From: an uncultured Gammaproteobacteria bacterium
GTDB lineage: Bacteria; Patescibacteriota; Microgenomatia; Daviesbacterales; UBA10151
NCBI GenBank assembly: GCA_964394855.1
Contig: CAYMZD010000002.1
Location: forward strand, 60,575-124,574
Direction: 5' to 3'
DNA length: 64,000 nt
This document shows positions 5,788 to 54,529 of this stretch, piece by piece. Below the pieces are notes generated by a model. The model was not told the DNA's origin and did no database searches. It saw only the letters and a list, made by a program, of their open reading frames with translations. The stretch's first letter is position 1. Each line of letters starts with the position of its first letter. The position numbers and the translations under genes are program-made.

Positions 5788-6122
5788 TAGATAAAAATTA
5801 AAATAATTTTCATAAAACTGACCAGTAAAACAGTGGCACAAACCAGCGATGTAGCTTGTATGACTTGTTTAAAAAGGCGCTGCTTATCATGCAGCTGCCA
5901 GTAAATCATTAAATTGATTAGGGTAATGCAAACTAAAATGGCGGGCAGGATGAAAAATTGTGGCAGCATTGCCAGCTGCCCCTCGCCCCAGGGAAGAGAG
6001 TAAAACAAAGGTAATTTAGATGGAGAAAATATTGGCATGAAAAGAATTACCGTGGTCATCACCACAGCCAAAAATATTGGCCATAACTCAATTTTTAAGA
6101 AAACTTTTGCTTTACGGCCCAT
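5787..6122 (-). CDS. small polytopic membrane protein (111 aa), hypothetical
   Basis: Three hydrophobic helices; overlaps the GT2 stop and abuts the WecA-like start, so it is likely co-translated within the operon. Confidence 0.35.
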   Translation of the reverse strand: MGRKAKVFLKIELWPIFLAVVMTTVILFMPIFSPSKLPLFYSLPWGEGQLAMLPQFFILPAILVCITLINLMIYWQLHDKQRLFKQVIQATSLVCATVLLVSFMKIILIFI

Positions 6123-7900
6123 CAGCTATTTTTCCCCTGCAATCTGGTTTTAATGGTTGTCCTAAACTCTAGATATTTTCCCAACATTAAAGTAGTTTGG
6201 GCATCAATAGCAGGTAGGGAAGCAATAGTCACCAGCACAATAGGTACCAACAGCCATTGGAAATATGAGAAAAACTTTTTTATCAAAGACCAATTGGGGG
6301 GTCTTTTGGGAATAGTTTTTTCATGAACATAGATGGTGGAAAAAAGCCCCAAAAAGGCAATGGTTAAAACCCAAGACGAAGCAATAGAGAGATTATAGGC
6401 CACGACAGATTCTGAATATTGGGGATTGATAAAACCGATTAAAACACCGCCAAAAGTAATAAAAAGTGCCAGCGTACCCCATTTTAAGTATGACCAAATT
6501 ATAAAAATTAATCGGTCGGTTTTATTCCAAAAATCTAATCGTGAGTTTTTAAAGTATTGTTTAATAATAAATGGAAGATGTTCTACGCCATAAGCCCACC
6601 TTTTAAGTTGTAAATATTGATTTTGGAAAGTTTTCAAAAGATTAACATCAACCACGGTGTCAGCGCTAATTGGTAAGTAATGAGGAATGACTTTATAATC
6701 ACCATCAAAATAATAATATGCTTTCCAGAAAAATCCGGCATCATCATTAACTTTATCAGGAATCCACAGCCCCACATCAAGTAATGATTTTAAGTTGATG
6801 GAGAGGGAGGAAAAGTTGATATATTTATCGCTCCCCACCATTTCTGATATTTGCCAAAAGGCAGTGCCAGAGGCAATGACCCGCATTGGGGCAGGAGCTT
6901 GCCAGTAGTTGTTGTAATATAAAAATACTCCGGTAAAAGAACGTTTATCCCGTTCATTCTCTGGGGTTTTTAAGTATTTATGTAAAGCCCCTGCTAAAAA
7001 TTGAGGATGAATCACAAAATCAGCATCCAGAGTGGTCACAAAAACATCCTCTGGTTTGATACCCAGTTTTTTGAATTCTGAAACGGCATTTTTGATCATC
7101 CAGTTTCTGTTAGTTCCTGGTCCTGGCACCTCACCTGATAGCCCAAAAGGGTGTATGGTGGTGAAAACTCCGCCAATTTTTTTAGAGTACTTTGCTAAAT
7201 ATTTCTTAGTTTCATTGATTTTTTTAAGATCATCCCTCTGCTCAAAACCAACAGCCAAAAAAAGTTTTTTCTGGGGATAACTGGAATGGGCAATAGCCTC
7301 AAAAGCAGGAGCTAAAACCTCCAGAGGCTCTTTATAAGTGGGTAAAAGTAAGAGGTGGTAGTATTTTTCCCACTGGCGAGGAAAATCTTGTTCTAGTTCT
7401 TCTAGCCAATTTTGTTTGGCTGCCCAGGTAAATTTTTTATAACCTATAAAAATTAAAATGGCAATTTTTAAAGAGTTAAAAAGCCAATAGATGTCAGCTA
7501 ATATGATTAGGTAGGCAACAGCAAAAGGTAGGGTGAATGAAAGCCAAATGGGAGAGGTTAAAGCTAACCAAGTTAAGGCCCCAGGTAGGATTTCCAATAA
7601 ACGCTCTACTTTAGTGTCATGTTTTTGAATAAAATCTCTTTCTATTTTTTCAGAGAAAAGATACCGTTCGGATAAAAGATGATGGGCAATGATCCCCACG
7701 CCTGCTCCTACCAGAAAATAACCAGCCAAAATATTTAAAGGGTAGCCTAAACCTGGTCCCCAAATTCCCAAAATTATTCCAGCCAAAATGGAAAACAGTC
7801 CCACTAGAGAGTGAAGTTTGATCTTGACAACTTGTTTAAAAAGGGCAGCAAGGTAAAAAAATGATAACAGTCCAATTAAAAGCGCCAAAAGAAATCTCAT
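6122..7900 (-). CDS. processive family-2 glycosyltransferase (cellulose/chitin/hyaluronan-synthase-like) with N- and C-terminal TM bundles
   Basis: GT2 DxD motif (TTLDADFVIHP), SADTVVD, and the hallmark processive-synthase motif QLKRW (QxxRW); TM helices on both flanks of the catalytic domain. Confidence 0.6.
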   Translation of the reverse strand: MRFLLALLIGLLSFFYLAALFKQVVKIKLHSLVGLFSILAGIILGIWGPGLGYPLNILAGYFLVGAGVGIIAHHLLSERYLFSEKIERDFIQKHDTKVERLLEILPGALTWLALTSPIWLSFTLPFAVAYLIILADIYWLFNSLKIAILIFIGYKKFTWAAKQNWLEELEQDFPRQWEKYYHLLLLPTYKEPLEVLAPAFEAIAHSSYPQKKLFLAVGFEQRDDLKKINETKKYLAKYSKKIGGVFTTIHPFGLSGEVPGPGTNRNWMIKNAVSEFKKLGIKPEDVFVTTLDADFVIHPQFLAGALHKYLKTPENERDKRSFTGVFLYYNNYWQAPAPMRVIASGTAFWQISEMVGSDKYINFSSLSINLKSLLDVGLWIPDKVNDDAGFFWKAYYYFDGDYKVIPHYLPISADTVVDVNLLKTFQNQYLQLKRWAYGVEHLPFIIKQYFKNSRLDFWNKTDRLIFIIWSYLKWGTLALFITFGGVLIGFINPQYSESVVAYNLSIASSWVLTIAFLGLFSTIYVHEKTIPKRPPNWSLIKKFFSYFQWLLVPIVLVTIASLPAIDAQTTLMLGKYLEFRTTIKTRLQGKNS

Positions 7901-14053: not shown

Positions 14054-14551
14054 TTATACCCGATACAACCAAAAGTCTCCAGACTTTTTATATGGTTTCC
14101 AGTTTTTAAAATGGTAAGTTTGGGTGATAATTTTTGCATCTTTTTTTACCTCTTTTTTTAATTTGTTTTTCAGTTTAGCTACCCCTTCGTGTAAAAGATA
14201 AATAAATATTACATCTGCATCTGATAAATCTTTTTGAAAAATATTTCCATGAAAAAAATTGGCATTTGGTAAATTTCTCTGACGAGCTTTCCACCTGGAA
14301 TATAAAACTCTAATCCAGCTTTGCTCTATGCCGTAAGCTTCGGCCCCCATCCTGGCTGCCTCCAGGACTATTCTGCCGTCACCAGAACCCAATTCATAAA
14401 AATTTTTGCCTTTTAAATTGACAAGCTTTAGAGCTTTTTTAATTTTTTCTTGTTTAGTGGGAACAAAAGGGGCATCAGACCCCGCAAACCAGGACAATCC
14501 AATAAAACAACCAAGTAATACCCCACCCGTGATTATGAATGTTAATTCCAT
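14054..14551 (-). CDS. small class I SAM-dependent methyltransferase with N-terminal TM anchor
   Basis: TM helix, then motif I ELGSGDGRIVLEAARMGAEAYGIE and an acidic post-I loop. Confidence 0.5.
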   Translation of the reverse strand: MELTFIITGGVLLGCFIGLSWFAGSDAPFVPTKQEKIKKALKLVNLKGKNFYELGSGDGRIVLEAARMGAEAYGIEQSWIRVLYSRWKARQRNLPNANFFHGNIFQKDLSDADVIFIYLLHEGVAKLKNKLKKEVKKDAKIITQTYHFKNWKPYKKSGDFWLYRV

Positions 14552-15552
14552 TTAATTATCTTTAAAAGAAAAACTTTTAAAGGCATTAGTTTATCAATTA
14601 GAGTAAATATCCAATAAATGGGCCAATTAAAAACTAAATCATAAGTTCCAAGGTATTCTACCAGCTGCCCGCCATAACCTTGTTTGAATCTATGGAAACC
14701 AAAAAATGGATCTTTGGGATTTGCATCTGGTCCCAAGGCTCCCCACATGTCAAACTTCTTAAGCCCTAATTTTTTTCCCAATTTAATTGCTTCCCAAGCA
14801 ACCAAGTTATTGGCCATTACTTCCGGATGATCTTTGGAAGATCCCCCATAAGGATAATACAGAGTGTCTTTGAAATTTAGCAACATCCAGGCAGTTAGGG
14901 GTTTTTCCTGATAAAAAGCAATCAGTAATCTGGCCATATTGGCATTTTTTAAAGTAAGCCAAGCTTTTCTGTGATAGTTTTCATTGTGGCCATGATAACC
15001 CTGTCTTTGGGTAGTTTCAAAATATAGTTTTAAATAAATTTCAAAAGCTTTGTCATCTGAACATTGTTCTACTTTAACCCCATGTTTCTGGGCCAGCTTA
15101 ATGTTGTATCTGGTTTTAGGGTGCATATTTTTTAAAAGTTCCTCTTCAGATTTAATTAGGTCAATAATAAAGTTATATTTAGTGAATAAAGGTTTGGGGG
15201 AGGGGTGAAAATCGCTTATAACTAGGAACTCAGAACTAGGAACTAGGCTCTCTGGTTCCACTTTGATAAATGCACAATTTTGTTCCTTACCAATTTTTTT
15301 TAAAGCTTGGGCCAGCTCTTTGTCTGGCTGTGGACCTTTGGGTAGATACCCCACGGATTGATTGGTAAATGGAATTTTATGTAATGTTAACTGGAAAGCT
15401 TTTTGCAGTTTGCCATTTGTGTCAAGTCCATATCGCAACACTGGTATTCCCAAACTTTTTCTAAACTCTCCCCACTCCCATGATTGGATAACATGGGTGA
15501 CTAATTTATTATACTTTGCTTTTTGGTTATCTTCTATCAGTCTTAAATCCAC
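14542..15552 (-). CDS. FemAB-family peptidoglycan interpeptide-bridge aminoacyltransferase (FemX-like)
   Basis: Length and pattern (WEWGEFRK, HPKTRYNIKLAQKHGVKV, LYYPYGGSS, ANNLVAWEAIKLGKKLGLKKFDMWG) match the FemABX/GNAT-fold family. Confidence 0.65.
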   Translation of the reverse strand: MDLRLIEDNQKAKYNKLVTHVIQSWEWGEFRKSLGIPVLRYGLDTNGKLQKAFQLTLHKIPFTNQSVGYLPKGPQPDKELAQALKKIGKEQNCAFIKVEPESLVPSSEFLVISDFHPSPKPLFTKYNFIIDLIKSEEELLKNMHPKTRYNIKLAQKHGVKVEQCSDDKAFEIYLKLYFETTQRQGYHGHNENYHRKAWLTLKNANMARLLIAFYQEKPLTAWMLLNFKDTLYYPYGGSSKDHPEVMANNLVAWEAIKLGKKLGLKKFDMWGALGPDANPKDPFFGFHRFKQGYGGQLVEYLGTYDLVFNWPIYWIFTLIDKLMPLKVFLLKIIKWN

Positions 15553-16225: not shown

Positions 16226-16912
16226 TTACAATAGGTAAATATCAATAAATTGGGCCCTCCAGCCGGCAGTTTGTGCGTCATCAAAACCTAAATCAATAAT
16301 ATTGCCCTTAATGGCTCCACCAGTGTCCCCAGCTACTGCCACCCCATAACCCGGGATATAAACTTTCGATCGTAAGGGTATAACTTTGGGATCAACAGCA
16401 ATCACACCTTTACCTGCCCTCATACCAATGGCCGTCCATTCATTACAACCCAAACACTTTGAATCATAATGGGTGGCATAAACCCGCATTTTTTTCCAGT
16501 ATTTAATTTCTCCATCGGGAGTTACAAGGGTTTTCCAGACAATTTTAGTTCCCCGGGAAACAATTTTATCTGTGGGAGGGGTAATCTCGGTAGAGACTAT
16601 CTCCCTTTCATATTCTTCCCCTTCAAAAAAGGTAATTTTGATAATTTTTACTCTTTTGCCATCTTGACCTTCTTCTAAAACCTTATCTATTCCCGCTTCG
16701 GTTTCCGGATCATCCCGATAAATGGTCTTTTTAGGAATACTTTCAGTTTGCTCTTCCAATTTAGAGGTAAAACGGGACTCTGTTACCACCGGTTGGGTTA
16801 CGGGAAGAGTGTCCGGCGTACTTGCTTCGACAGTGGTTGGTGTAGTAGAGAGAAAATTTCTCCCCAAAAATATTAAAGCAAAGATTAAAATAGCCCCCAA
16901 ATATCTTTCCAT
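16226..16912 (-). CDS. secreted 3D-domain (MltA/YabE-like) protein with G5 domain
   Basis: Signal peptide; G5-like segment (GIDKVLEEGQDGKRVKIIKITF); C-terminal 3D domain with three conserved Asp (AVDPKVIPLRSKVYIPGYGVAVAGDTGGAIKGNIIDLGFDD). Confidence 0.6.
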   Translation of the reverse strand: MERYLGAILIFALIFLGRNFLSTTPTTVEASTPDTLPVTQPVVTESRFTSKLEEQTESIPKKTIYRDDPETEAGIDKVLEEGQDGKRVKIIKITFFEGEEYEREIVSTEITPPTDKIVSRGTKIVWKTLVTPDGEIKYWKKMRVYATHYDSKCLGCNEWTAIGMRAGKGVIAVDPKVIPLRSKVYIPGYGVAVAGDTGGAIKGNIIDLGFDDAQTAGWRAQFIDIYLL

Positions 16913-20032: not shown

Positions 20033-21220
20033 ATGAGGTACGTCAATATCCCTAAGTATTCTGATAGTTCTAATCGTAAAAGAAGTAACAGAATTTTAAA
20101 AAAATATAAACCCATTTTATTTTTGACTGCTTTGGTGGTAGCAATTGCTTTGGCAATGGCCATTTTTTCCGGCACAGAATCAGTTTTTCGCTTTGTTTTT
20201 CCAAGTTTGACACCGCTTGAAAATACTGATGGAAAAGTTAATGTACTTTTATTGGGTAACCCTGGAGGAGTGCATGATGGGGCATATCTGACAGATACCA
20301 TCATGGTGGCCTCATATAATTTAAAAAGTAGTCAAGTTTATTTTATCTCGCTGCCACGAGATTTATGGCTTGATAGCTACAAAGCTAAACTCAATGCTAT
20401 TTATGAGATAGGTTTGGCCAGAAAAGAAAGCTTAAAATTTGTCAAATCAGTAGTCGGTGATATCTTGGGTTTACCTATTCACTATGTCATCAGAGTTGAT
20501 TTTCGGGGTTTCGTCAAAGCTATTGATGAAGTGGGTGGTTTAGATATTTTAGTTGATCGTTCATTTAGTGACTCTTTATACCCTATTGAGGGTAAAGAAA
20601 ATGATTTGTGTGATTTAGAAGAAAAAGAAGTTGAGATTACAGATGAGCTGGCAGAAAAATATCAGCTAAAGATGGGAAAACAAAAAGTATTTATGGATTT
20701 TACGGGTAAGATTGCCACCCAGTCGGCAGATTTTCCCTGCCGCTTCGAACGTATTAGTTTTAGTGGTGGGCTGCAGCACATGAGCGGGGAAGTGGCCTTA
20801 AAATATGTTCGTTCTAGAATGGGCAGCAATGGGGAGGGTTCTGATTTTGCCAGATCCAAGCGTCAGCAAAAAGTACTGGAAGCTTTTCGCAAAAAGGCCT
20901 TATCTTTGGAAACCTTAGCTAGTCCCACCAAACTTAAATCTTTAATTGATACTTTGGGAATAAGTTTTGAAACTGATATACCAATAGATGATATGATTGA
21001 ACTTTATCGCTTAAGCAAAAAAAATCATCAGGTGGCTAATTTAGTCTTGGGGAATCTGCCATTTTTGATAAATCCACCAGCCCAAGATTATGGAGGAGCT
21101 TTTGTGGTAGTACCCAAAGACGGTAACTTTAATGAATTACACACATTCATCAAAAAAGTTATCAATGGGGAGGTGAGTTTAGATGAAGCTACTGCTTCTG
21201 CACGGACTGGCAATCGCTAG
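20033..21220 (+). CDS. LytR-CpsA-Psr (LCP) family cell-envelope glycopolymer transferase
   Basis: N-terminal TM anchor; LCP core (LLLGNPGGVHDGAYLTDTIMVASY, ISLPRDLWLD, KYVRSRMGSNGEGSDFARSKRQQKV). Confidence 0.7.
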   Translation: MRYVNIPKYSDSSNRKRSNRILKKYKPILFLTALVVAIALAMAIFSGTESVFRFVFPSLTPLENTDGKVNVLLLGNPGGVHDGAYLTDTIMVASYNLKSSQVYFISLPRDLWLDSYKAKLNAIYEIGLARKESLKFVKSVVGDILGLPIHYVIRVDFRGFVKAIDEVGGLDILVDRSFSDSLYPIEGKENDLCDLEEKEVEITDELAEKYQLKMGKQKVFMDFTGKIATQSADFPCRFERISFSGGLQHMSGEVALKYVRSRMGSNGEGSDFARSKRQQKVLEAFRKKALSLETLASPTKLKSLIDTLGISFETDIPIDDMIELYRLSKKNHQVANLVLGNLPFLINPPAQDYGGAFVVVPKDGNFNELHTFIKKVINGEVSLDEATASARTGNR

Positions 21221-21821
21221 CTCTAGAAAAAAATTAACTGACATTAAACAAAGCTTTACACCAGATAATGTGGTGACTTTCGAAAAAGGAGCAGAGCAGC
21301 AAGAGGTCTTGGCTAACTTACAATCTCTGTCTCTTTTTGCAGGTGAGAGGTTGGTTGTTTGGGAAAACCCCCCTGAAAGTTTTCAGTTAGCAGTCTTTTA
21401 TTCACAACTCCCCGTTACTTTAGCCCTATGGTTTGATCATGAGGTAGATACTAAAAATTGGAAAGATGCACAAACGTTATTTTTTCCAGAGGCAAAAGAA
21501 ATCTCTGTTTTTCCATTTTTAGACCACCTCGGTAATAAAGAAAGTAGCGCTTTTTCGGAACTGGATAAGTTAAAAAGAGGAGGCTTTGATAGTCAGTATA
21601 TTATTACTATGATTTTCTATCTTCTTAGGAATTTAGTAGCTACTCCCAAAAGTGCCAAAGCTTTTGTCAAAAGCAAAAATGAGAGGATGAAAGCCAATTT
21701 TTCTTTGGAGGAGTTAGTCAAATTGTACAGATCAGTTCTAGATTTAGATTTTAAAGTAAAAAGCGGCCTTTTGGATGAAACGCAAGCACAGTTTTTATTG
21801 GTTAATCTCTTTCTGTATTAA
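21183..21821 (+). CDS. holA: compact DNA polymerase III delta-subunit-like protein (HolA-like)
   Basis: SLFAGERLVVWENPPE resembles the delta-subunit clamp-loader motif (SLFA..LLLL.EN). Helical C-terminal domain. Weak, recalled from memory. Confidence 0.35.
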   Translation: MKLLLLHGLAIASSRKKLTDIKQSFTPDNVVTFEKGAEQQEVLANLQSLSLFAGERLVVWENPPESFQLAVFYSQLPVTLALWFDHEVDTKNWKDAQTLFFPEAKEISVFPFLDHLGNKESSAFSELDKLKRGGFDSQYIITMIFYLLRNLVATPKSAKAFVKSKNERMKANFSLEELVKLYRSVLDLDFKVKSGLLDETQAQFLLVNLFLY

Positions 21822-22709
21822 ATCTAAATCCTTTTTATCAACTTTTTCATCATCATTTAAATCAGCCCCTTTTTCTTTTGGGTTGGTGCCCATATTTTTT
21901 AAAACAATAGCATAATCGGAAGAGTTGATTAAACCATCTTTATTGAGATCAAATTTAGAATAAGCCGCAGGGGAAGCTTCATTTAATGTCAAGTTCAAAT
22001 CTTGGCCCATTTTTAATAAGATAAGAGGTTTATTCAGTTGTGATAACTTGAAAATGGCTCTAGCCACTCGTCCGTCTGGGCTGATAACTTCCAACTTGGC
22101 TTCTGTATCAGCTGGTGGATTTAATACCGCTGTCAGATCAGCTGTTCTAAGTTGACTAAGAGGAATGATAAAGGAACCAAGATCGGTGATAACTGCAGAC
22201 TGGATGGTAGCGTTAGGAATGGATAAATAGACCAGACCATCATGCAAGGGTTTATCTCCATCAATGACTGATCCAATGGTTGGTCCAAGGCCATTTTGGT
22301 TACTACTCAAAGGAGCGGTGGAAAATTGTCTGGAAGGAGTGACAAAATTACCAGAATGAATTTTTAGAAGATATGAAGATGCAGGCAGTAACCCCTTGAG
22401 GGTAATGTAATGATTTCTTCTTTTAATGGTCTGGGTTTCATCTCTGTCATCTAATTTGGTTTTTTCATTAGCAGTTCTTTGTCCATAAGTAATAAAACCA
22501 ATCACCGGAGTTTGGGTTTGCCATGATAAGGTGACAGTCTCACCTTCGATATTACTGATAACTACATTCTGTGGTGAAATATCAGGAGAAGCTGTGGTGA
22601 TTAAGGTTTGATTTTGTAGAACTAAATAGACACCACTGCCAATGCCAAAAATCAGTAAAGCTAGTCCTAAAAGAGTTGGGATTTTAAACTTATTTAAAAT
22701 ATTACTCAT
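21795..22709 (-). CDS. membrane-anchored extracellular protein with fibronectin-III-like domain and C-terminal type-I dockerin (two Ca-binding repeats)
   Basis: Signal-anchor (LLGLALLIFGIGSGVYLVL); FN3-like core (ETVTLSWQTQTPVIGFITYGQ...YLLKIHS); dockerin repeats DLNKDGLINSSDYAIVLKNMG and DLNDDEKVDKKDLDLIQKEI. Confidence 0.55.
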   Translation of the reverse strand: MSNILNKFKIPTLLGLALLIFGIGSGVYLVLQNQTLITTASPDISPQNVVISNIEGETVTLSWQTQTPVIGFITYGQRTANEKTKLDDRDETQTIKRRNHYITLKGLLPASSYLLKIHSGNFVTPSRQFSTAPLSSNQNGLGPTIGSVIDGDKPLHDGLVYLSIPNATIQSAVITDLGSFIIPLSQLRTADLTAVLNPPADTEAKLEVISPDGRVARAIFKLSQLNKPLILLKMGQDLNLTLNEASPAAYSKFDLNKDGLINSSDYAIVLKNMGTNPKEKGADLNDDEKVDKKDLDLIQKEINQ

Positions 22710-39437: not shown

Positions 39438-40430
39438 ATGAAATACGATAGTCAACTAATAGAGTTGAAAAACCTGCTTCCGTCTGCCAAAAGCATTTTA
39501 ATTGCCTTACCTAGCAACTGCGATATGGACCGCTTCGCCGCCGGGCTGGCCCTTTTTTTATCATTCAATGCCCAAGGTAAGGAAGTTTCAGTAGTTTGTG
39601 ATGACACAATTCATGTGGCCCAGTCTCATCTTTTTGGGGTGAACCATGTCCAAAAAAATATACCCCAAACTCAAGGCGGTAATTTTGTTATCAGCTTGGA
39701 GGGAGTAGCTGTCCCCAACTCATCCTCCCCCCAAGGAGGACAAGCTCCAGCCTTGGAAAAAATGGATTATGTGGTAGAAGGCAATAATTTAAATTTAGTT
39801 TTCTATATTTTACCAGGTCAAACTTTTCAGCCTTCAAGGATAGTGCCCCATTATCAAGGTAGCGGTTTTAACCTAATTTTTACAATTGGTGCTGCCAATT
39901 TAAACCATTTGGGAAATATATATTTACAAAATCAGGGAGCTTTTTCTGGTGTTCATGTAGTTAATATTGATATTCAAGCGGCCAACACCTCCTTTGGCCA
40001 AACTAATGTAGTTGATAGCGCAGCTTCTTCTGTGGCTGAAATAATGACAGATGTGGTGGGAGCACTGGGGTTGCCTTTTGATGCAGATATTGCTTCAAAT
40101 TTATTGGCGGGAATTTTTGAGGCTACCTCCAATTTGACTTCACAAAATGTTAGTGCAGATACGCATCTCGCGGTGGCCAATTGTTTAAGAATTGGCGGCA
40201 GAAAACCGGAAGTCTTACAAAATGCAATACCCGCTAGCGGAGGTTTTGATTTAAGCAGTTTGATCAGCCCCAAACCCACAGTGGAAGCTTTTACTGCTCC
40301 GCCTATATCCAGTGAGCCACAACCTTCTCCAGAAGAAAGACCATCAGGGGAAGGATTGGCTGCTGAAAGTATCGAACCAGAACCAGGTTGGTTAACCCCT
40401 AAAGTTTTCAAGGGCGGTTCTGTGGGTTAA
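39438..40430 (+). CDS. degenerate NrnA-like DHH-family protein (DHH motif replaced, no DHHA1 domain) with Pro/Ser/Glu-rich tail
   Basis: Aligns from memory to NrnA around motif I (ILIALPSNCDMDRFAAGLAL ~ ILHRHVRPDPDAYGS) and motif III (VVNIDIQAANTSFGQTNVVDSAASSVAEIM ~ KIDHHPNEDPYGDLLWVDTSASSVSEMI). DHH is changed to DIQ, motif II and IV Asp residues are substituted, and the GGGH/DHHA1 domain is missing. Confidence 0.4.
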   Translation: MKYDSQLIELKNLLPSAKSILIALPSNCDMDRFAAGLALFLSFNAQGKEVSVVCDDTIHVAQSHLFGVNHVQKNIPQTQGGNFVISLEGVAVPNSSSPQGGQAPALEKMDYVVEGNNLNLVFYILPGQTFQPSRIVPHYQGSGFNLIFTIGAANLNHLGNIYLQNQGAFSGVHVVNIDIQAANTSFGQTNVVDSAASSVAEIMTDVVGALGLPFDADIASNLLAGIFEATSNLTSQNVSADTHLAVANCLRIGGRKPEVLQNAIPASGGFDLSSLISPKPTVEAFTAPPISSEPQPSPEERPSGEGLAAESIEPEPGWLTPKVFKGGSVG

Positions 40431-45963: not shown

Positions 45964-48072
45964 ATGCCAAGACGAAGATCTATTTACGGAATGCCCAAAC
46001 TGCGATTGAAACATCGTACTATTGTGACCATAGGCTCACTGGTTAGTTTTATGTTGGCAGGTTTATCCATAGTTTCTCTGGCCACCGATACTGTTGCTTT
46101 GCAATTTTGGAAGAGGTTCTTGTTTGAACTTTTTGGTTGGACAGCGATTATTTCTCCAATTATATTTTTACTGGCTGGTATGGTTTTACAACGGTTTAAA
46201 TGGCCTTTCGCCCAAACCAATGTATTGTTGGGTTTGATTTTAATCATATTTTCTGCAGTTAGTTTAACAGCTCCTTTTTCCACCACTAGTGCTGGTAGTT
46301 TGGGCGTGACACTGTGGACACAGCTATCCTCTTTTATCACTGATGTTGGAGCAACCATCTTGCTTTTGGGAGTGTTCTTGGTAGGTTTGGTAGTTTTTCT
46401 TAATACCTCGCTGACCCAAATTATTAAAGTGATTTTTGCTATTGTTAGTTTTCTAAATGAGAAGATATTTAAGCCATTTATTTGGAACCCTATTTTTCAA
46501 AGACCGCGGGGATTTGAGGCCAAAAACATTCCCATTAAAGTTTCTGGAATCAGCGCCGTTGAGTCCTCAAAAAGCAAAAATCAAGCGGTTTTGGCAGATG
46601 AACTGATTCAAAATGTGGCTGGACAAACAAAAGTTTGGAAATATCCGCCCATATCACTTTTATCTGATAAGGTTGGTTCGGCTGCAGACAGGGGTGATGT
46701 TAAGAAAAATGTAGCCATCATTGAGAAGACTCTTGATTCTTTTGGTATCCAAGCTAAAGTGGCAGAAGTTAACGGGGGACCAGCTGTGACCCAGTATGCC
46801 TTGGAGATTTCCGCTGGTACTAAAATTGCCAAAATCGCCAATTTGCAGCATGACTTAGCCTTGGCTTTGGCCACTCCTACTGGTACAGTTAGAGTGGAAG
46901 CTCCCATCCCGGGAAAATCACTGGTGGGAATTGAGGTTCCTAATCGCTCCCTGGAAATAGTAGGTTTAAAATCAATCCTGACATCAGAAGAACTGGAAAA
47001 ACATAAATCCAAGCTGGCAGTGGCTTTGGGACGAGACACAGCTTCTAACCCGGTGGTGGTTGATTTAGACAGAATGCCTCACTGTTTAGTGGCAGGAACA
47101 ACTGGCTCTGGTAAATCTGTCTTAATAAATGCTTTTATTTCCACCTTGCTTTATAGAAATTCCCCCCAAGAGTTAAAAGTGATTTTGATTGATCCCAAAA
47201 GAGTGGAATTAACAGGTTACAATGGCATACCTCATCTTTTAACTCCGGTTATTACTGAACCGGAAAAAATTCTCTCGGCTTTAAAGTGGGCCATGGCCGA
47301 AATGGATCGTAGATATAAACTTTTCCAACAAGTAGGAGTGAGAAACATTGTCGGTTATAATGAGATGTCTGGTTTTCAAGCTCTTCCCTATATTGTCATT
47401 ATTGTTGATGAACTGGCAGATTTGATGATGTTTGCCCCGGTGGAAATAGAAGATGCCATTACTCGCTTGGCGCAAATGGCCAGGGCTACAGGTATTCACT
47501 TGGTGGTGTCGACCCAGCGACCTTCAGTGGATGTTATCACTGGCTTAATCAAAGCCAATATTCCCTGTCGGATTGCTTTTAATGTATCTTCCATGGTTGA
47601 CTCTAGAGTGATTATTGACCAACCAGGGGCGGAAAAATTGCTGGGGCGGGGAGATATGTTGTTTTTACCGCCTGATGCTTCCAAACCGGTGCGTATTCAG
47701 GGAGTGATGGTGAAAGATGAGGAAATTAATGAGCTGATCAAATTTTTGAAATCAACTGGTATTGCTCCTGAATATACGGCCGAAGTGACAGAGATGCCGC
47801 TGGGCAGATGGGGTAAAGGAGTAAATGGTGGTGGTGGTGGACAGGATGATCTGTTTGAAGAGGCAGTTAGGACAGTTTGTCAATATGACAGAGCCTCGGC
47901 CTCGCTTCTTCAAAGGAGGCTTAGGGTGGGCTATGCCCGGGCAGCCAGAATTTTGGATGAGCTGGAGAGTGCTGGTATTGTCGGTCCGGGTGAAGGGGCC
48001 AAACCAAGAGATGTACTGGTTCGAAATGCCGAAGAATATTTAGCTCAAAAAGCTGGGGTTGTTGAAGGTTAA
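45964..48072 (+). CDS. ftsK: DNA translocase FtsK/SpoIIIE
   Basis: 4 N-terminal TM helices, linker, motor domain (HCLVAGTTGSGKSVLINAFI, IVIIVDELADLMM), C-terminal gamma winged-helix (LLQRRLRVGYARAARILDELE). Confidence 0.9.
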   Translation: MPRRRSIYGMPKLRLKHRTIVTIGSLVSFMLAGLSIVSLATDTVALQFWKRFLFELFGWTAIISPIIFLLAGMVLQRFKWPFAQTNVLLGLILIIFSAVSLTAPFSTTSAGSLGVTLWTQLSSFITDVGATILLLGVFLVGLVVFLNTSLTQIIKVIFAIVSFLNEKIFKPFIWNPIFQRPRGFEAKNIPIKVSGISAVESSKSKNQAVLADELIQNVAGQTKVWKYPPISLLSDKVGSAADRGDVKKNVAIIEKTLDSFGIQAKVAEVNGGPAVTQYALEISAGTKIAKIANLQHDLALALATPTGTVRVEAPIPGKSLVGIEVPNRSLEIVGLKSILTSEELEKHKSKLAVALGRDTASNPVVVDLDRMPHCLVAGTTGSGKSVLINAFISTLLYRNSPQELKVILIDPKRVELTGYNGIPHLLTPVITEPEKILSALKWAMAEMDRRYKLFQQVGVRNIVGYNEMSGFQALPYIVIIVDELADLMMFAPVEIEDAITRLAQMARATGIHLVVSTQRPSVDVITGLIKANIPCRIAFNVSSMVDSRVIIDQPGAEKLLGRGDMLFLPPDASKPVRIQGVMVKDEEINELIKFLKSTGIAPEYTAEVTEMPLGRWGKGVNGGGGGQDDLFEEAVRTVCQYDRASASLLQRRLRVGYARAARILDELESAGIVGPGEGAKPRDVLVRNAEEYLAQKAGVVEG

Positions 48073-48143
48073 TATGTCGGGGAAATTAATTGCCACCACC
48101 CCCCAAGCTAGAAAACAATCCCAAAATTAGGTATACTCGCTTT

Positions 48144-48782
48144 ATGAGAACTGTGGGGCAAATTTTAAAGGAAGAAAGAGAAAAAAAGTTTTATACCCTG
48201 GAGGAGATTGAAAAAGTCACCAAGATTAGGAAAGAGCTACTGGGGGCTTTGGAAGCAGATGACTATTCAAAACTTCCCCCTCCCACCTTTGTTCAGGGTT
48301 TTATTAAAAATTATGGTAAGTTTTTAAAACTAGATACAGATAAGCTATTAGCTATTTTCAGAAGAGAATTTTCCGACCGCAAACACCCCCCCAGAATCTT
48401 GGAAAGTTTTGCCAATCCTTTAGAAAAAAATAAATTTCATCTCACTCCTGCCAAATTTATTTCCTTGGTGGTGGTTTTTTTAATAATGGCTTTTTTTGTC
48501 TATCTTTGGTTTGAATTTCGTTTTTTGGTTGGTCCGCCATATTTGGAAGTAACCGAGCCGACAGACCAAACAAGTGTCTCCACCACATCAGTGAAAGTAG
48601 TTGGTAAGGCTGATCCAGAAGTGAAAGTGGCTATTAATAATCAGCAAATTCAGCTGGATTCCAGTGGTAACTTCCATGAGGAAATTAAATTGGGAGGCAG
48701 CGTCAATAAATTATCCATCACTGCCACTTCTAAATTTGGTCAGACTACTCAAATAGAAAGAATCGTATTTTTAAAACAGTAA
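48144..48782 (+). CDS. rodZ: RodZ-like cytoskeleton protein (XRE-type HTH, TM, C-terminal beta domain)
   Basis: HTH VGQILKEEREKKFYTLEEIEKVTKIRKELLGALEADDYSKLP, single TM, DUF4115-like C-terminus. Start moved to MRTVGQ (the track ORF begins at 48090). Confidence 0.55.
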   Translation: MRTVGQILKEEREKKFYTLEEIEKVTKIRKELLGALEADDYSKLPPPTFVQGFIKNYGKFLKLDTDKLLAIFRREFSDRKHPPRILESFANPLEKNKFHLTPAKFISLVVVFLIMAFFVYLWFEFRFLVGPPYLEVTEPTDQTSVSTTSVKVVGKADPEVKVAINNQQIQLDSSGNFHEEIKLGGSVNKLSITATSKFGQTTQIERIVFLKQ

Positions 48783-48803
48783 TTTATGTGTTAATCTTAA
48801 GAC

Positions 48804-49061
48804 ATGGATTTATTGCAGCTAGCTTTAGTTTTTTTAATTATCCTGCTGTCAATCTTTTTAACTATTACTGGAATTCAGGTTTTTTTTATTTTGCATGATT
48901 TAAAAAAAGCTCTGGATAGATTTAATCACATCTTACAAACCGGAGATGAGGTAGCTCAAGCAGTGGAAAAACCAGTATCTTTAGCTGCCAATTTTATTAA
49001 AAACTTAGCTTACAAAAAACATGCCGCTTCAACTCGCCGCCTCTTCAAAAAAAGAGCATAA
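48804..49061 (+). CDS. small membrane protein (85 aa), hypothetical
   Basis: One N-terminal TM helix, then an amphipathic helix and a basic tail. Confidence 0.3.
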   Translation: MDLLQLALVFLIILLSIFLTITGIQVFFILHDLKKALDRFNHILQTGDEVAQAVEKPVSLAANFIKNLAYKKHAASTRRLFKKRA

Positions 49062-49078
49062 AAAGCTATACTTGAACC

Positions 49079-50380
49079 ATGAATTCTGATAACTTAAGAG
49101 AGAAATTTTTAAAATTTTTTGCCAGATGCGGACATGTCATCATCCCCTCTGCCTCATTAATACCTTCGGCAGAAGAACAATTAGCTGGTAAAGAAAAGGT
49201 TTTATTTACCAGCGCTGGTATGCAGCCTTTAATTCCCTACCTTTTAGGTAAACCACACCCTCAAGGTAAAAGATTAGCTGATGTACAAAAATGTTTAAGA
49301 ACCGATGATATAGAAGAAGTAGGAGATGCTGTGCATAATACATTTTTTGAAATGTTAGGGAATTGGTCGCTCGGTGCTTATTGGAAGGATGAAGCTATAA
49401 GACTTTCTTTTGAATTTTTGACTAAAGAGTTAGAAATTTCCATAGAAAAGTTAGCAGTCAGTGTGTTTGCAGGGGATGAAAATACTCCCAAAGATGAGGA
49501 GTCGGCAAGAGTATGGGAAAGTCTGGGAATTCCCAAAGATAGGATTTTTTATTTTGGTAAAGAATATAATTGGTGGCCAACTGGTGAAAAATCAGGCCCA
49601 TGTGGTCCAGATACGGAAATGTTTTATTGGACAGGGGAAGGTGAACCAGCAGGCAAGCCAAATGAAAATTCTTTATGGGTGGAAATATGGAATGATGTTT
49701 TTATGCAGTTCAATCGGCAAGATGACGGGATGCTGGAGGAGCTAAAACAAAAAAACGTTGATACGGGGATGGGACTGGAAAGAACTTTAGCGGTATTAAA
49801 TGGTAAAAAAAACAATTACCAAACAGATTTATTTGAACCAATTATGCAGATGATCGAAAAGGTGACAGGCAAAGTATATGGACAAGACGATTGGGATACT
49901 GTCCGATTCAGAATCATTGCTGATCATGTTAAAGGAGCAACCTTTTTAATTGGGGATGGTGTCAGGCCTTCGAATAAAGATAGAGGTTATATTTTACGTC
50001 GTCTAGTTCGCCGTGCGGCCATGCAACTGCATTTATTAAAAAAAATTACCAATGAAAAAGACTTTATTTCTATTAGCGACGCTGTTATTGAGATCTATGG
50101 AGGATTTTATTTTTTAGATTCAGAGCATCAAAGAAAAATCGTGGCGGAGGAAATTGGAGCAGAGATTTCTAAATTTATTAAAACAATTGAAAAAGGTTTA
50201 CAGGTATATAAAAAAACAGGACAAGTTGTTTCTGGTCAAGAAGCTTTCTTTCTTTTCCAAAGCTTTGGTTTTCCCCTAGAGTTGACAATGGATTTAGCCA
50301 AAGAAGATGGTAAGATGATAGATAAAGAGGGATTTGAGAAAGAATTTAAAAAGCATCAAGCTATTTCCCGTGGGGAGTAG
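49079..50380 (+). CDS. alaS: alanyl-tRNA synthetase, catalytic + tRNA-recognition core only (433 aa; no editing or C-Ala domains)
   Basis: Class II AlaRS N-terminus (FLKFFARCGHVIIPSASLIP, LFTSAGMQP, QKCLRTDDIEEVGDAVHNTFFEMLGNWSLGAYWK, WWPTGEKSGPCGPDTE). The stop at 50380 is followed by an unrelated gene. Confidence 0.8.
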   Translation: MNSDNLREKFLKFFARCGHVIIPSASLIPSAEEQLAGKEKVLFTSAGMQPLIPYLLGKPHPQGKRLADVQKCLRTDDIEEVGDAVHNTFFEMLGNWSLGAYWKDEAIRLSFEFLTKELEISIEKLAVSVFAGDENTPKDEESARVWESLGIPKDRIFYFGKEYNWWPTGEKSGPCGPDTEMFYWTGEGEPAGKPNENSLWVEIWNDVFMQFNRQDDGMLEELKQKNVDTGMGLERTLAVLNGKKNNYQTDLFEPIMQMIEKVTGKVYGQDDWDTVRFRIIADHVKGATFLIGDGVRPSNKDRGYILRRLVRRAAMQLHLLKKITNEKDFISISDAVIEIYGGFYFLDSEHQRKIVAEEIGAEISKFIKTIEKGLQVYKKTGQVVSGQEAFFLFQSFGFPLELTMDLAKEDGKMIDKEGFEKEFKKHQAISRGE

Positions 50381-50404: not shown

Positions 50405-52540
50405 ATGAGCTTGTTGGAAAAACTCACTAATTTCTTACCATTTACCAAAACTAAGCAGCAGGCAAAACACTTCTTTGCTTTAAATATTGGCCCGGAAAAA
50501 GTTAAAGCAGCTCTTTGGTCTATTGAGGATAAAAATTTACAAGTTGTTAACCCTGTTTTTACAAAATACTCTTCCGCGGATGAACTTTTACAAGTAGCTG
50601 ACCATTTACTTGATCAGACATTGGGAGATCTAAATGTGGAGCCAGAAAAAATTCTTTTTGGTGTTCCAGATTCTTGGCTATTGGATGATGAGTTAAAAGA
50701 ACCATATTTGAAACTCCTTCGTAATATAGTTAAAGAGCTAAGTTTAAAACCCATGGCTTATGTAGCCACCTCACATGCGCTGGCTCATTTTCTAGAGAGT
50801 CTTGAGGGAGCACCCACTACAGCCATTTTAGTGGGTATTGAGGAGAGTTTCTTGAGCATCACAGTAGTCAGGGCTGGTAAAATTGATGGGACTAAACTGA
50901 TAAAGCGGGGTGATAATCTTGGGGAAGAGATTGAAAAAGCGCTACTTTCTTTTACCGAAGTTGAGGTTTTACCTTCAAAAATATTGTTATATGGCTTGGA
51001 GGGGTTAGATAAACACAAAAGCAATTTACTGGCTTTTCCCTGGATGTCAAAACTATCTTTCCTGCATTTTCCCAAGATCGAGACCTTGGAAGAAGATGTA
51101 GAGTTAACAGCAACAGCTTTAGCTGGAGCAGTGGAACTTCAAGGTGATGTTAAATATTCCCCCAGTTCATCTATGGTCACCATCACCCCCCAAAAAAAGT
51201 TATCGGTAATGGAGGAAGAGGAAGCTGAAGAAAGGAAGCCACCAACAAAGACACAAAATGAAACTGGTTTTGTGACAGGGGATATTACCAAAGTACCAGA
51301 AAAGGAAGAACCAGAGGAAGAGAAGCCCCCCATGATCGTGGCTGAAGATGAGCTGTTAGAGCAGCCCCATCATGCAAGATTTAAGCTACCATTTTTAAAG
51401 CTGTCTTATTTGAGGGGTAAAAATAAGTTACTTATTTTGCCGGCAGCAATTTTAATTTTGACTATTTTCTATCTATTATTCTCTCAAGCCAAAGTGACTG
51501 TTTTTGTGGAACCACGAGTTTTAGAAAGAGACTCTCAAGTTACAGCTGATCCCAATGTAAAGACGGTTGATGAAGCAAATAAGATTATTCCAGGACAATT
51601 CACAGAAGTGCAGGTTGCTGGATCAGACAAGTTGGCAGCCACTGGAAGAAAAGAGGTGGGTGATCCAGCCAAAGGCACAGTGGTTATTTATAATAAGACA
51701 GATTCTGCCAAGACGTTTTCTAGTGGTACCGCTTTAACTGGTTCAGGTGGACTCAAGTTTACTCTAAATTCTACTGTTAATGTTGCTTCCCAATCGGCCA
51801 TTGAAGGGGGTATCTCTTTTGGGAAAGCCACTACCGGTGTGACTGCTGTTTTGATAGGAGCAGATGGAAATATCTCGTCTGGGACAGAATTGTCTTTAGC
51901 TAGTTTTTCTTCCTCACAATATTCAGCTAAAGCCGAAGGTAATTTTTCTGGAGGGAACTCCAAAGAAGTAACTGTGGTGACAGATAGTGATCAGAAAAAA
52001 CTTTTAGCATCTTTGGCAGCAGCGCTTCGCAAAAAAGCCCAAGAGGAATTGCAAAAAAGCTTGGAAGGAAAAAAGATTCTAGAAGAAGCTCTGTCTGAAG
52101 ATATTATTAAAAAATCATACTCCAAGAATATCAATGATCAAGCATCGGAATTTTCTTTAAGCTTGACTATTAAATATAAAGGTATTGCCTATTCTGAACC
52201 TGATTTAAAGCTGATCGTTTCCAAATTAATAGAAACTAATGTCCCGGCTGATTTTGAGTTGAACTTAGCTGAAACAGAGACGCAAGCAGATGTTTCCAAG
52301 CTGGAAAAAGATAAATTGATCTTTCTGGCACGGTTTAAAGCTAAATTAATGCCCAAATTGGATATAGCTAAAATAAAATCACAACTTAGGGGGAAAACAC
52401 CTCAAGAGGTAGCCGCTATTTTAAAAAGTTATGAAAATGTTTTAGGTTCTGACATAAAACTTAATCCTTCCTTGCCTGCCCCAATTGCCAGGTTACCGCT
52501 ATTGGATAGAAATATCCACATCGAGGTGAGTTTGAAGTAA
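50405..52540 (+). CDS. bitopic membrane protein: degenerate actin-like (FtsA/PilM/GspL-type) cytoplasmic domain, acidic linker, TM helix, ~330-aa extracellular domain
   Basis: N-terminal pattern FALNIGPEKVKAALWS ... AILVGIEESFLSITVVRAGKI ... ILLYGLEG resembles ASKHA phosphate/adenosine motifs with substitutions. Glu-rich linker, then TM (LLILPAAILILTIFYLLF), then a Ser/Thr/Gly-rich beta-type region. Confidence 0.35.
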   Translation: MSLLEKLTNFLPFTKTKQQAKHFFALNIGPEKVKAALWSIEDKNLQVVNPVFTKYSSADELLQVADHLLDQTLGDLNVEPEKILFGVPDSWLLDDELKEPYLKLLRNIVKELSLKPMAYVATSHALAHFLESLEGAPTTAILVGIEESFLSITVVRAGKIDGTKLIKRGDNLGEEIEKALLSFTEVEVLPSKILLYGLEGLDKHKSNLLAFPWMSKLSFLHFPKIETLEEDVELTATALAGAVELQGDVKYSPSSSMVTITPQKKLSVMEEEEAEERKPPTKTQNETGFVTGDITKVPEKEEPEEEKPPMIVAEDELLEQPHHARFKLPFLKLSYLRGKNKLLILPAAILILTIFYLLFSQAKVTVFVEPRVLERDSQVTADPNVKTVDEANKIIPGQFTEVQVAGSDKLAATGRKEVGDPAKGTVVIYNKTDSAKTFSSGTALTGSGGLKFTLNSTVNVASQSAIEGGISFGKATTGVTAVLIGADGNISSGTELSLASFSSSQYSAKAEGNFSGGNSKEVTVVTDSDQKKLLASLAAALRKKAQEELQKSLEGKKILEEALSEDIIKKSYSKNINDQASEFSLSLTIKYKGIAYSEPDLKLIVSKLIETNVPADFELNLAETETQADVSKLEKDKLIFLARFKAKLMPKLDIAKIKSQLRGKTPQEVAAILKSYENVLGSDIKLNPSLPAPIARLPLLDRNIHIEVSLK

Positions 52541-52542
52541 TA

Positions 52543-53190
52543 ATGAATGGTAAATTACTGGCACTTCCACTTTTGGGTTTAGGGGTATTTTTACTTTTGC
52601 AGGTGAGTTTACCTCTTTTAAGTTTTAAGATTTGGGAATTAAAGTTTATTCAGAGTAATAATTTATTGATCAGTCCTCAACCACCCAAGAAACATGTTCT
52701 AGGGGTCTCTATTCAAAAACAAGATGGGAGTTTTCCTGCTTTTATTTCTAGCTTACAGCGAGATATAAAGGCTCCTTTTGATGAGTTTACTATGTCTGTG
52801 CCTCGTCTAGAAATTAAACAAGCCAAGGTTTTAGTAGATAGTAATGATTTAACAGCAGGGCTCGCTCATTTACCAGGCTCGGCTCTACCTGGAGAGCGGG
52901 GTAATGTTTTTATATCAGGCCACTCCAGCTTGCCACAATTTTTCAAAGGTGACAAAAATTATGGAGCTATTTTTGCCAATTTAGCTAATTTAAAAAAGGG
53001 AGATCAGATTTTAATACAAGTAGGAGGTAGTGAATTTAACTATCAAGTGCTGGGGATAAAAATTGTTGAGCCAAATGATTTATCAGTCATCCTACCACCT
53101 GATGAAACTGGGCGGTTTCTCTCTTTAATGACCTGTGTTCCCCCTGGGCTTAATACTAAGCGCCTGGTAGTTTTAGCCAAATTAATCTGA
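52543..53190 (+). CDS. sortase-family transpeptidase
   Basis: N-terminal TM anchor; catalytic His (VFISGHSS), TLxTC-type Cys (SLMTCVPPG), C-terminal Arg (TKRLVVLA). Confidence 0.65.
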   Translation: MNGKLLALPLLGLGVFLLLQVSLPLLSFKIWELKFIQSNNLLISPQPPKKHVLGVSIQKQDGSFPAFISSLQRDIKAPFDEFTMSVPRLEIKQAKVLVDSNDLTAGLAHLPGSALPGERGNVFISGHSSLPQFFKGDKNYGAIFANLANLKKGDQILIQVGGSEFNYQVLGIKIVEPNDLSVILPPDETGRFLSLMTCVPPGLNTKRLVVLAKLI

Positions 53191-53564
53191 TGAAATATTT
53201 AGGAGTAGATTTTGGTTTAAAAAGAACTGGTTTGGCAATATCTGAAGGAGAAATTGCTTCTCCTTTAAAAATTATCGAAAGTAAAAATTTTTTTGATTTA
53301 GTGGAACAGGTAAGAAAAGAGATTGAGGCCAATAATATAGATTTGGTGGTGGTTGGTAAACCGGATGGTAGAATGGGAAAGTTGGCAGAACGGTTTGCCA
53401 AAGCCTTAAGGAAAAAAGTTACCGTAGTTTTAGCAGACGAAACACTTTCCTCCCAATATGCCCAAAAACTAATGGTGGAGGGGGGAGTAGCTAAAAAAAG
53501 AAGACGTTTATCAGATGCCCAAGCAGCCAGCTTAATTTTACAAAATTATTTAGATTTATTATGA
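53190..53564 (+). CDS. ruvX: YqgF/RuvX-family nuclease (pre-16S rRNA nuclease)
   Basis: MKYLGVDFGLKRTGLAISEGEIASPL RNase-H-fold N-terminus; conserved alaS-ruvX-mltG neighbourhood. Confidence 0.8.
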   Translation: MKYLGVDFGLKRTGLAISEGEIASPLKIIESKNFFDLVEQVRKEIEANNIDLVVVGKPDGRMGKLAERFAKALRKKVTVVLADETLSSQYAQKLMVEGGVAKKRRRLSDAQAASLILQNYLDLL

Positions 53565-54529
53565 GAAAATTGTTACCACTACTAGTGCTATTTTTGTTGA
53601 TTTTGTATTTAGTGTATGGATGGTGGCAGAACCAATTTATGGCGGTTAGTAATGATAAAAATAGCAAAAATTTCATTATTGCCAAAGGTGAATCTGTCAA
53701 TGACGTGGCAGAGAGTTTAAAGAAAGAAGGTTTAATTAAAAACCCTTTTGCTTTTAAGTTTTATCTTAAAGGAAGTGGTGATGGTGATAAATTGCAAGCT
53801 GGTACCTTCAAACTGTCTCCCTCTATGTCAATTAAAGAAACTGTTGAAGTACTAAAGGGAAGGCCGAATGATTTGTGGGTAACTTTATTGGAAGGCTGGA
53901 GAATGGAAGAAATGGCAGAGAGGTTAAATACGGACTTAAGAATCAAGAATGAAGAATTTTTAAAAGTTGCCAAAGAGGGTTACATGTTTCCAGATACATA
54001 TTTATTCGCCAAAGAAGTTACAGCAGAAAGAATAGCCAGCATTATGAGGGATAACTTTGAAAGGAAATATACCCCAGATCTTCGGGCTAAAATTAGGAGT
54101 TTGGGATTAACTGAAAGCCAAGGAGTAGTTTTGGCTTCCATTGTAGAGAGGGAAGCCAGATCTGATGCAGCCAGAACAATGGTGGCATCAATATTGCTTA
54201 AAAGGCTAAAGATTGATATGGGGTTAAATGCTGATGCCACTGTTCAGTATGCGCTGGTTCCAAAAGGATCGAAAAATCCGCCAGCTGGTGGATGGTGGAA
54301 GAGACATTTAACCAAAGACGATTTAAAGGTGTCCTCACCTTATAATACCTATTTATATCGTGGACTTCCTCCCACCCCAATTTGCAATCCATCTCTGTCC
54401 TCACTTAAAGCTGTAGCCAACTCCGATCCCTCAACTCCATATTTGTATTACTACCATGATTCCAAAGGAAATTCGTACTATGCCAAGACTTTAGATGAAC
54501 ACAACCAAAATGTGGCCAATAATCCATAA
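53561..54529 (+). CDS. mltG: endolytic murein transglycosylase MltG (YceG)
   Basis: N-terminal TM; YceG core (FIIAKGESVNDVAESL, LLEGWRMEEMAERL, RGLPPTPICNPSLSSLKAV). Confidence 0.8.
   Translation: MRKLLPLLVLFLLILYLVYGWWQNQFMAVSNDKNSKNFIIAKGESVNDVAESLKKEGLIKNPFAFKFYLKGSGDGDKLQAGTFKLSPSMSIKETVEVLKGRPNDLWVTLLEGWRMEEMAERLNTDLRIKNEEFLKVAKEGYMFPDTYLFAKEVTAERIASIMRDNFERKYTPDLRAKIRSLGLTESQGVVLASIVEREARSDAARTMVASILLKRLKIDMGLNADATVQYALVPKGSKNPPAGGWWKRHLTKDDLKVSSPYNTYLYRGLPPTPICNPSLSSLKAVANSDPSTPYLYYYHDSKGNSYYAKTLDEHNQNVANNP

Follow-up and report, generated by a model that had tools for sequence, protein, structure and literature searches.

A two-gene unit, made of a large bitopic membrane protein of 711 aa (here called BIG) and of a sortase, was found in a 64,000-nucleotide stretch of DNA from an uncultured Daviesbacterales bacterium (Patescibacteriota, Microgenomatia; GenBank assembly GCA_964394855.1, contig CAYMZD010000002.1, positions 60,575 to 124,574 of the forward strand), this whole stretch being referred to below as the window. 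Our analysis indicated that BIG is bitopic, vertically conserved within an operon of housekeeping and envelope genes and, in the usual case, coupled in translation to an intact sortase. BIG may be a Microgenomates-specific scaffold spanning the envelope, which would partner or position a housekeeping sortase while its pseudo-actin domain docks on a cytoplasmic partner, a reading to which we give a probability of roughly 0.4. The two open reading frames (ORFs) lie between alaS and ruvX-mltG, exactly at the coordinates given by an earlier interpretation made by a model from the letters alone (the sequence-only reading), with the sortase start 3 nt past the last base of the BIG stop codon, leaving two nucleotides in between. 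The features of the pair are listed below; residue conservation was counted in an alignment of 60 members of the BIG family (A2), which are 29-54% identical to the BIG of the window.

50405-52540 (+): BIG, large bitopic membrane protein, 711 aa (ORF; AlphaFold2 model, mean pLDDT 83.8)
50465-51154 (+): actin-like (ASKHA) cytoplasmic core, aa ~21-250, nearest to FtsA/PilM, without conserved nucleotide-binding residues
51041-51076 (+): most conserved patch of the N-domain, W213-x5-F219-L-H221-F-P223-K224 (column counts, A2)
51170-51400 (+): acidic, Glu-rich, disordered cytoplasmic linker, aa 256-332 (pLDDT<50; length and sequence vary across the family)
51263-51286 (+): short linear motif of the linker, [LF]-G288-F289-V-x-x-D293-[IV], aa 287-294 (A2)
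51425-51481 (+): single transmembrane (TM) helix, aa 341-359 (model helix), with the basic stretch RFKLPFLKLSYLRGKNK just before it
51485-52537 (+): extracytoplasmic domain, aa 361-711 (full model and domain-only model, pLDDT 86.9)
51656-51964 (+): ectodomain core (aa 418-520) resembling baseplate-J/wedge proteins, with the conserved motif G516-G517-[TS]-S519-[RK]
52543-53190 (+): sortase, 215 aa, with a membrane anchor (aa ~5-27) and a catalytic domain (aa 85-215; His127/Cys198/Arg207) (Pfam Sortase, TIGR01076)

The BIG sequence is 100% identical to the NCBI hypothetical protein HY386_00990 of Candidatus Daviesbacteria, as found by a database homology search. An AlphaFold2 model of the full protein, built on an alignment of 77 homologues, displayed five parts, among which the cytoplasmic domain, the Glu-rich linker, the single TM helix and the large ectodomain that had been described from the letters alone. 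The basic stretch preceding the TM helix indicates an N-in/C-out topology, in line with the positive-inside rule. In the ectodomain, the model showed a beta-rich barrel, a long helix (aa 527-552) and two alpha/beta subdomains extending to aa 711. Against Pfam and NCBIfam, BIG gave no match above threshold, and the sole sub-threshold match was Baseplate_J. Homologues were numerous, with 588 close relatives, and 8757 representatives of clusters at 50% identity at E<=1e-3, 1980 of them at E<=1e-30; such numbers indicate that the BIG and sortase genes are real and under selection. The complete layout of N-domain, TM helix and ectodomain was found in all of the top 150 cluster representatives.

The N-domain was modelled as a compact alpha/beta domain (aa ~21-250) with the duplicated beta-beta-beta-alpha-beta-alpha-beta-alpha order of actin/ASKHA folds. 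In alignment A2, the position of the phosphate-1 Asp is occupied by E, N, Q or V, and the adenosine 'GG' is missing. The phosphate-2 position ('DxGGGT') corresponds to GIEESF (aa 144-149) in the window protein, within a stretch that is variable among the 60 members. The proposal of an actin-like domain with substituted ATP motifs was thus upheld. Judged from these aligned residues, the N-domain is an FtsA/PilM-type actin fold in which every nucleotide-binding motif has been lost, i.e., a pseudo-actin, and it is therefore predicted to be a binding module and not an ATPase. The most conserved residues of this domain are found elsewhere: F219, H221 and P223 are invariant, and W213 is present in 59/60. 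Within the linker, a single motif is conserved (G in 56/60, F in 59/60, D in 53/60), the rest being unconserved. Both this GFVxxD motif and the W213/F219/H221/P223 patch look like protein-binding determinants.

For the ectodomain, Baseplate_J (PF04865) was matched over aa 418-520 of the window protein with 15.9 bits (E=0.008), below the gathering cutoff of 21.1, and the same Pfam model was matched at E<=0.01 by 41 of the 60 diverse members, with a best E of 2e-8. A search of PDB sequences with the close-homologue profile A1 gave nothing meaningful; only the more diverse A2 profile reached the diffocin baseplate protein CD1371 (8v3w_E, E=4e-4), with the conserved F-S-G-G-T-S motif aligned. In PHROGs, the window protein itself had no match, and a distant BIG member had one weak match to a 'baseplate wedge subunit' family. 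At the structural level, the barrel fold of baseplate-J/wedge proteins was present in the ectodomain, the core of which is accordingly a baseplate-J/wedge barrel completed by extra alpha/beta subdomains.

Such a homology raises the question of whether BIG could derive from a baseplate gene of a phage or contractile injection system, surviving as a remnant or after domestication, or whether it could act as a phage receptor or in defence, in either case without taking part in normal envelope biology. In its favour, the core is homologous to the baseplate J/wedge proteins of phages, diffocin, PVC and AFP, and NCBI, which labels the family as hypothetical, names some members 'baseplate J/gp47 family protein'. 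However, no tail, sheath, tube, spike, other wedge or baseplate genes were found nearby, no PADLOC matches were obtained, and no relatives of BIG were found on IMG/VR viral contigs. Moreover, only ~120-150 of the 350 ectodomain residues (~40%) align to baseplate proteins, the place of the gene within a housekeeping operon is the same even in deeply diverged genomes, and the GC content of the gene is that of its surroundings. This explanation was consequently considered very improbable.

The downstream gene clearly encodes a sortase, as had been proposed: it matched Pfam Sortase PF04203 (E=4.7e-23, 81.7 bits for a cutoff of 26.6) and TIGR01076 (69.5, above the cutoff of 39.35), and its catalytic His127, Cys198 and Arg207 were kept across 64 orthologues. 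Its class was less clear-cut. The best PDB matches were class C sortases (1e-12), and the class C model NF033745 scored higher (70.2) than the class E model NF033747 (62.4), although both scores stand below their cutoffs of 160, although the protein stays under every NCBIfam class cutoff, and although NCBI records name it 'class E sortase'. Given these scores, the sortases of Microgenomates may form a separate class. As for substrates, the absence of an LPxTG signal in the large protein, already pointed out from the letters alone, was confirmed, and none of the other ORFs of the window has a C-terminal sorting signal of the LPxTG type either. The substrate search was both motif-based (LPxTG, LAxTG, NPxTG and similar) and motif-free (C-terminal TM segment followed by a basic tail).

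The genes for class B, C and D sortases are typically encoded beside dedicated substrates, and BIG could by analogy be the substrate or acceptor of its neighbour, i.e., a membrane-anchored basal subunit with LPxTG/LAxTG proteins ligated onto a Lys of the ectodomain (e.g., K416 or K431), nucleating a fibre on a baseplate-like platform. The sequence of the sortase, nearest to class C pilus polymerases, is compatible with this, as are the conservation of K416 in 56/60 members of A2 and the fact that baseplate-J proteins are oligomeric platform subunits. A further likeness, between 'V-x-I-Y-N-K' in BIG and the pilin motif VYPK, is presumably loose and possibly due to chance; the 'IYNK' stretch was downgraded as a pilin-like acceptor motif, as K431 ('IYNKT') is present in only 44/60 members. 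By contrast, a C-terminal sorting signal is absent from BIG, none of the loci searched has a pilin-like or LPxTG gene close to BIG, and NCBI classes the sortase as a housekeeping class E enzyme. An acceptor role thus appears unlikely.

The genomic neighbourhood of the pair is as follows.

45964-49061 (+): ftsK (45964-48072), a rodZ-like gene (48090-48782) and an 85-aa TM ORF (48804-49061), conserved in most loci
49079-50380 (+): alaS (alanyl-tRNA synthetase), 433 aa, 24 nt upstream of BIG (Pfam tRNA-synt_2c, E=1e-123), a conserved neighbour
53190-54529 (+): ruvX (53190-53564), with a 1-nt overlap with the sortase gene, and mltG (53561-54529), with a 4-nt overlap with ruvX (Pfam/NCBIfam)

No promoter or terminator signals above chance broke up this block, and ruvX and mltG are probably in the same transcript as the preceding genes. 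A comparison was made of 84 loci, 80 of them from species-representative genomes (nearly all Daviesbacteria) and 4 looked up individually. The dominant order was (ftsK-rodZ-85aa TM-)alaS-BIG-sortase-ruvX-mltG(-rpoB). The sortase was directly downstream of BIG in 64 of the 84 loci, with a 4-nt gene overlap in 43 of these 64, and within 2.2 kb in 4 further loci, which makes 68 of the 84 in total. The relatives at ~30% identity, among them one Gottesmanbacteria genome and two contigs of >1 Mb, kept alaS-BIG-sortase. The retention of the pair across deeply diverged relatives indicates that it was already present in the ancestor of a large part of Microgenomates, and its fixed position in a housekeeping operon implies vertical inheritance. 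The view that two genes had been 'inserted' in an alaS-ruvX-mltG block must therefore be abandoned, since the arrangement is lineage-wide in Daviesbacteria and extends to Gottesmanbacteria-type relatives. A recent insertion or horizontal transfer of the BIG-sortase pair was likewise rejected in view of this synteny and of an unremarkable GC content, that of both genes being the same as in their flanks. The pair is present in most relatives, but it carries no functional annotation there, so that only half of the refutation proposed with the sequence-only reading applies.

Adjacency in 64/84 loci, the 43 overlaps of 4 nt, persistence at ~30% identity and the conserved catalytic His/Cys/Arg of the sortase together support a coupling between BIG and the sortase. 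These data also bear on another explanation, in which BIG would be a component of the divisome or elongasome and the sortase a mere conserved neighbour. In this case, BIG would be an FtsA-like tether, with a TM helix and a wall-facing ectodomain in place of the amphipathic helix, linking FtsZ or MreB to wall remodelling by MltG, in a manner analogous to RodZ. The 4-nt overlap in 43 loci rather argues for stoichiometric co-expression of BIG and the sortase. In addition, the N-domain, with only ~230 aa and none of the corresponding motifs, lacks the 1C subdomain of FtsA as well as its nucleotide site, BIG has no FtsA Pfam match, and its gene is outside the dcw cluster. We regard this explanation as less probable than the proposed sortase scaffold, at something like one chance in a few.

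The neighbours found in 88 loci were FtsK, RodZ, AlaRS, the sortase, RuvX, MltG and RpoB. Neither the 64-kb window nor the 88 related loci contained pilus, secretion or contractile-tail genes. This is relevant to the suggestion, made by the sequence-only reading, that BIG could be a divergent component of a pilus (type IV) or secretion platform (type II), namely GspL or a PilM-PilN/O fusion, tied to a sortase; such a component would connect a cytoplasmic ATPase to an extracellular filament. The actin-like fold and the topology of BIG do fit, and the claimed resemblance to GspL/PilM-PilN stands to this extent, with an FtsA/PilM-type fold; it fails for the ectodomain, which is baseplate-J-like and not GspL-, PilN- or PilO-like. 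Beyond fold and topology, all the membership features tested failed, whether in sequence, gene context or C-terminal domain, so that membership of these families is largely refuted and a platform of this kind is improbable.

The rest of the window contains genes for translation, transcription and RNA turnover, together with wall genes of the Gram-positive type (FemAB, LCP, M23, G5/3D):

2253-2981 (-): M23 peptidase
3024-3836 (+): PEGA+SH3 protein
14542-15552 (-): FemAB-family peptidyltransferase
16226-16912 (-): G5+3D protein (Rpf-like)
20033-21220 (+): LCP (LytR-CpsA-Psr) ligase

FemAB-family enzymes build the cross-bridge that sortases use as a nucleophile. The presence of FemAB and LCP in the window, and that of FtsK, RodZ and MltG in the same co-directional block as BIG, support an envelope context.

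From a mechanistic point of view, a scaffold of this type could work as follows. BIG and the membrane-anchored sortase would be produced together and act as a membrane complex, in which the ectodomain of BIG may hold or position the sortase, its substrate or the nascent wall. On the cytoplasmic side, the pseudo-actin domain may dock on a putative partner such as FtsZ, FtsA, MreB, or BIG itself, by an oligomerisation similar to that of FtsA/PilM. The outcome would be a sortase-dependent anchoring of surface proteins tied to wall growth or to division sites.

Several observations weigh against such a scaffold. In ~9 diverged Daviesbacteria loci, ruvX/mltG comes directly after BIG with no sortase in between, and in 4-5 more the downstream region is different, neither the sortase nor ruvX/mltG lying within 5 kb; BIG can therefore occur where no sortase adjoins it. 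No credible sortase substrates were found in the 64-kb window or in the 88 loci. The block also contains alaS, ruvX and rpoB, housekeeping genes of unrelated function, so that little can be concluded on function from the neighbourhood. For the C-terminal half of the ectodomain, no informative structural match was obtained. Finally, gene adjacency is the only link between BIG and the sortase.

A bolder version of the scaffold reading can be put forward as a speculation, with low confidence. BIG could be part of a new envelope machine, in which a nucleotide-free FtsA/PilM-like module is wired through the membrane to a repurposed baseplate-wedge module; with the sortase, it would be the platform on which a sortase-built surface structure is assembled, or its basal anchor, or would direct wall anchoring to division sites. 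If true, this would constitute a sortase system of a new, cytoskeleton-coupled class, and the domestication of a baseplate protein into core cell biology. More simply, if the coupling of BIG to the sortase is real, it would be the first case of a sortase tied to an actin-like transmembrane scaffold, with a phage baseplate module recruited to housekeeping functions of the envelope, and would offer a handle on the surface organisation of episymbiont-like cells. Microgenomates represent a large uncultured part of the Candidate Phyla Radiation (CPR), with an almost unknown cell biology. For one hypothetical family, a concrete and confident architecture is now available (pseudo-FtsA/PilM domain, TM helix, baseplate-J ectodomain), which corrects the bare 'baseplate J/gp47' label, suggestive of a prophage gene.

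Other observations were made on these loci. The loci in which BIG is directly followed by ruvX and/or mltG (L059, L062, L064, L065, L067, L070, L071, L072 and L076) belong to a diverged Daviesbacteria subgroup at 40-46% identity; alaS is on the opposite strand in 8 of these 9, and no alaS was found in L059. In the Gottesmanbacteria-type relatives, a pyrimidine-nucleoside (thymidine) phosphorylase and a 63-aa ORF replace ruvX between the sortase and mltG:

L085, 9073-10522: phosphorylase and 63-aa ORF region
L087, 9918-11372: phosphorylase and 63-aa ORF region
L088, 10163-11622: phosphorylase and 63-aa ORF region

The alaS gene of the window is short, with 433 aa versus ~600 aa, including a tRNA_SAD domain, in about 70 related loci. 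With two full-length AlaS relatives as queries, tblastn recovered residues 1-431 only, and the C-terminal ~170 aa are encoded nowhere in the 64-kb window; locus L024 likewise has a short alaS. The 85-aa ORF with one TM segment that separates the RodZ-like gene from alaS (48804-49061, +) showed a very weak FtsL-like Pfam match (E=0.06). Elsewhere in the window, a 304-aa protein (21795-22709, -) combines an fn3-like domain with a type I dockerin domain at its C-terminus, a module of the cellulosome type found here in a CPR genome, and two sizeable ORFs have no Pfam match, one of 592 aa (6122-7900, -; E<=1e-4) and one of 330 aa (39438-40430, +; E<=1e-3). As regards taxonomy, dozens of species-representative metagenome-assembled genomes in GTDB titled 'uncultured Gammaproteobacteria bacterium' (binchicken) carry a Daviesbacteria-type alaS-BIG-sortase-ruvX-mltG locus at 45-55% identity, including loci L006, L010-L013 and L018, and these 'Gammaproteobacteria' titles look taxonomically wrong.

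With respect to published work, sortases were reported to be near-universal in Microgenomates (Méheust et al., 2019; PMC6744442); the same study described 35 Microgenomates-enriched families, primarily hypothetical, of which 14 were predicted to be membrane-localised. Sortases in CPR genomes were also mentioned, with no further analysis, by Kantor et al. (2013; PMC3812714) and Kadnikov et al. (2020; PMC7143001). In the literature on sortase, baseplate J, FtsA/actin-like proteins and LPXTG in CPR/Patescibacteria/Microgenomates/OP11, no description of the BIG family or of its architecture was found. The family is uncharacterised and its domain combination unreported, whereas the theme of a bitopic actin-like scaffold is already known.

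Compared with known systems, BIG stands apart from GspL/EpsL of type II secretion: neither the window protein nor any of the 60 diverse members matched T2SSL or GspL_C in Pfam/NCBIfam at E<=0.1, the periplasmic ferredoxin-like C-terminal domain of GspL is absent, and no gspE, gspF, gspM or pseudopilin genes were found in the 64-kb window or the 88 loci. With PilM, which together with PilN/PilO belongs to the alignment subcomplex of type IV pili, BIG shares the FtsA/PilM-type actin-like fold, but it has neither a PilM_2 Pfam match nor conserved ATP-binding residues, and no pilB, pilC, pilN, pilO or pilin genes were found in the window or the loci. The canonical PilM of CPR, which belongs to a GspL-domain family and co-localises with type IV pilus genes, is a family separate from BIG (PMC6744442), and the CPR 'Pam' pilus is a donor-strand-exchange system unrelated to the BIG locus (bioRxiv 10.64898/2026.03.03.709456). 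Compared with FtsA, BIG lacks the ATP site and, by its size (~230 aa versus ~380-400), the 1C subdomain; it has a true TM helix and a 350-aa ectodomain where FtsA has an amphipathic helix, and it differs further by the absence of an FtsA Pfam match and by a gene position outside the dcw cluster. The barrel fold is common to BIG and to wedge proteins of the Baseplate J/gp47/gp6 type (PF04865), with ~40% of the BIG ectodomain aligned, but the BIG version is anchored in the membrane of the cell itself, joined to a cytoplasmic actin-like domain and encoded in a housekeeping operon, away from tail genes and viral contigs. The sortase of the window shares with the class E and class C sortases of Gram-positive bacteria the fold signature, the catalytic His/Cys/Arg and the N-terminal membrane anchor, while its pairing with a bitopic protein that does not look like a substrate is an arrangement described for neither class. 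Lastly, RodZ is a bitopic, MreB-binding morphogenetic protein, and a RodZ-like gene lies three genes upstream of BIG in the same block; RodZ has domains unrelated to those of BIG (HTH versus actin fold), so that the likeness is one of architecture only, but this layout is the same in both proteins: a cytoplasmic protein-binding domain, a linker, a TM helix and a beta-rich ectodomain.

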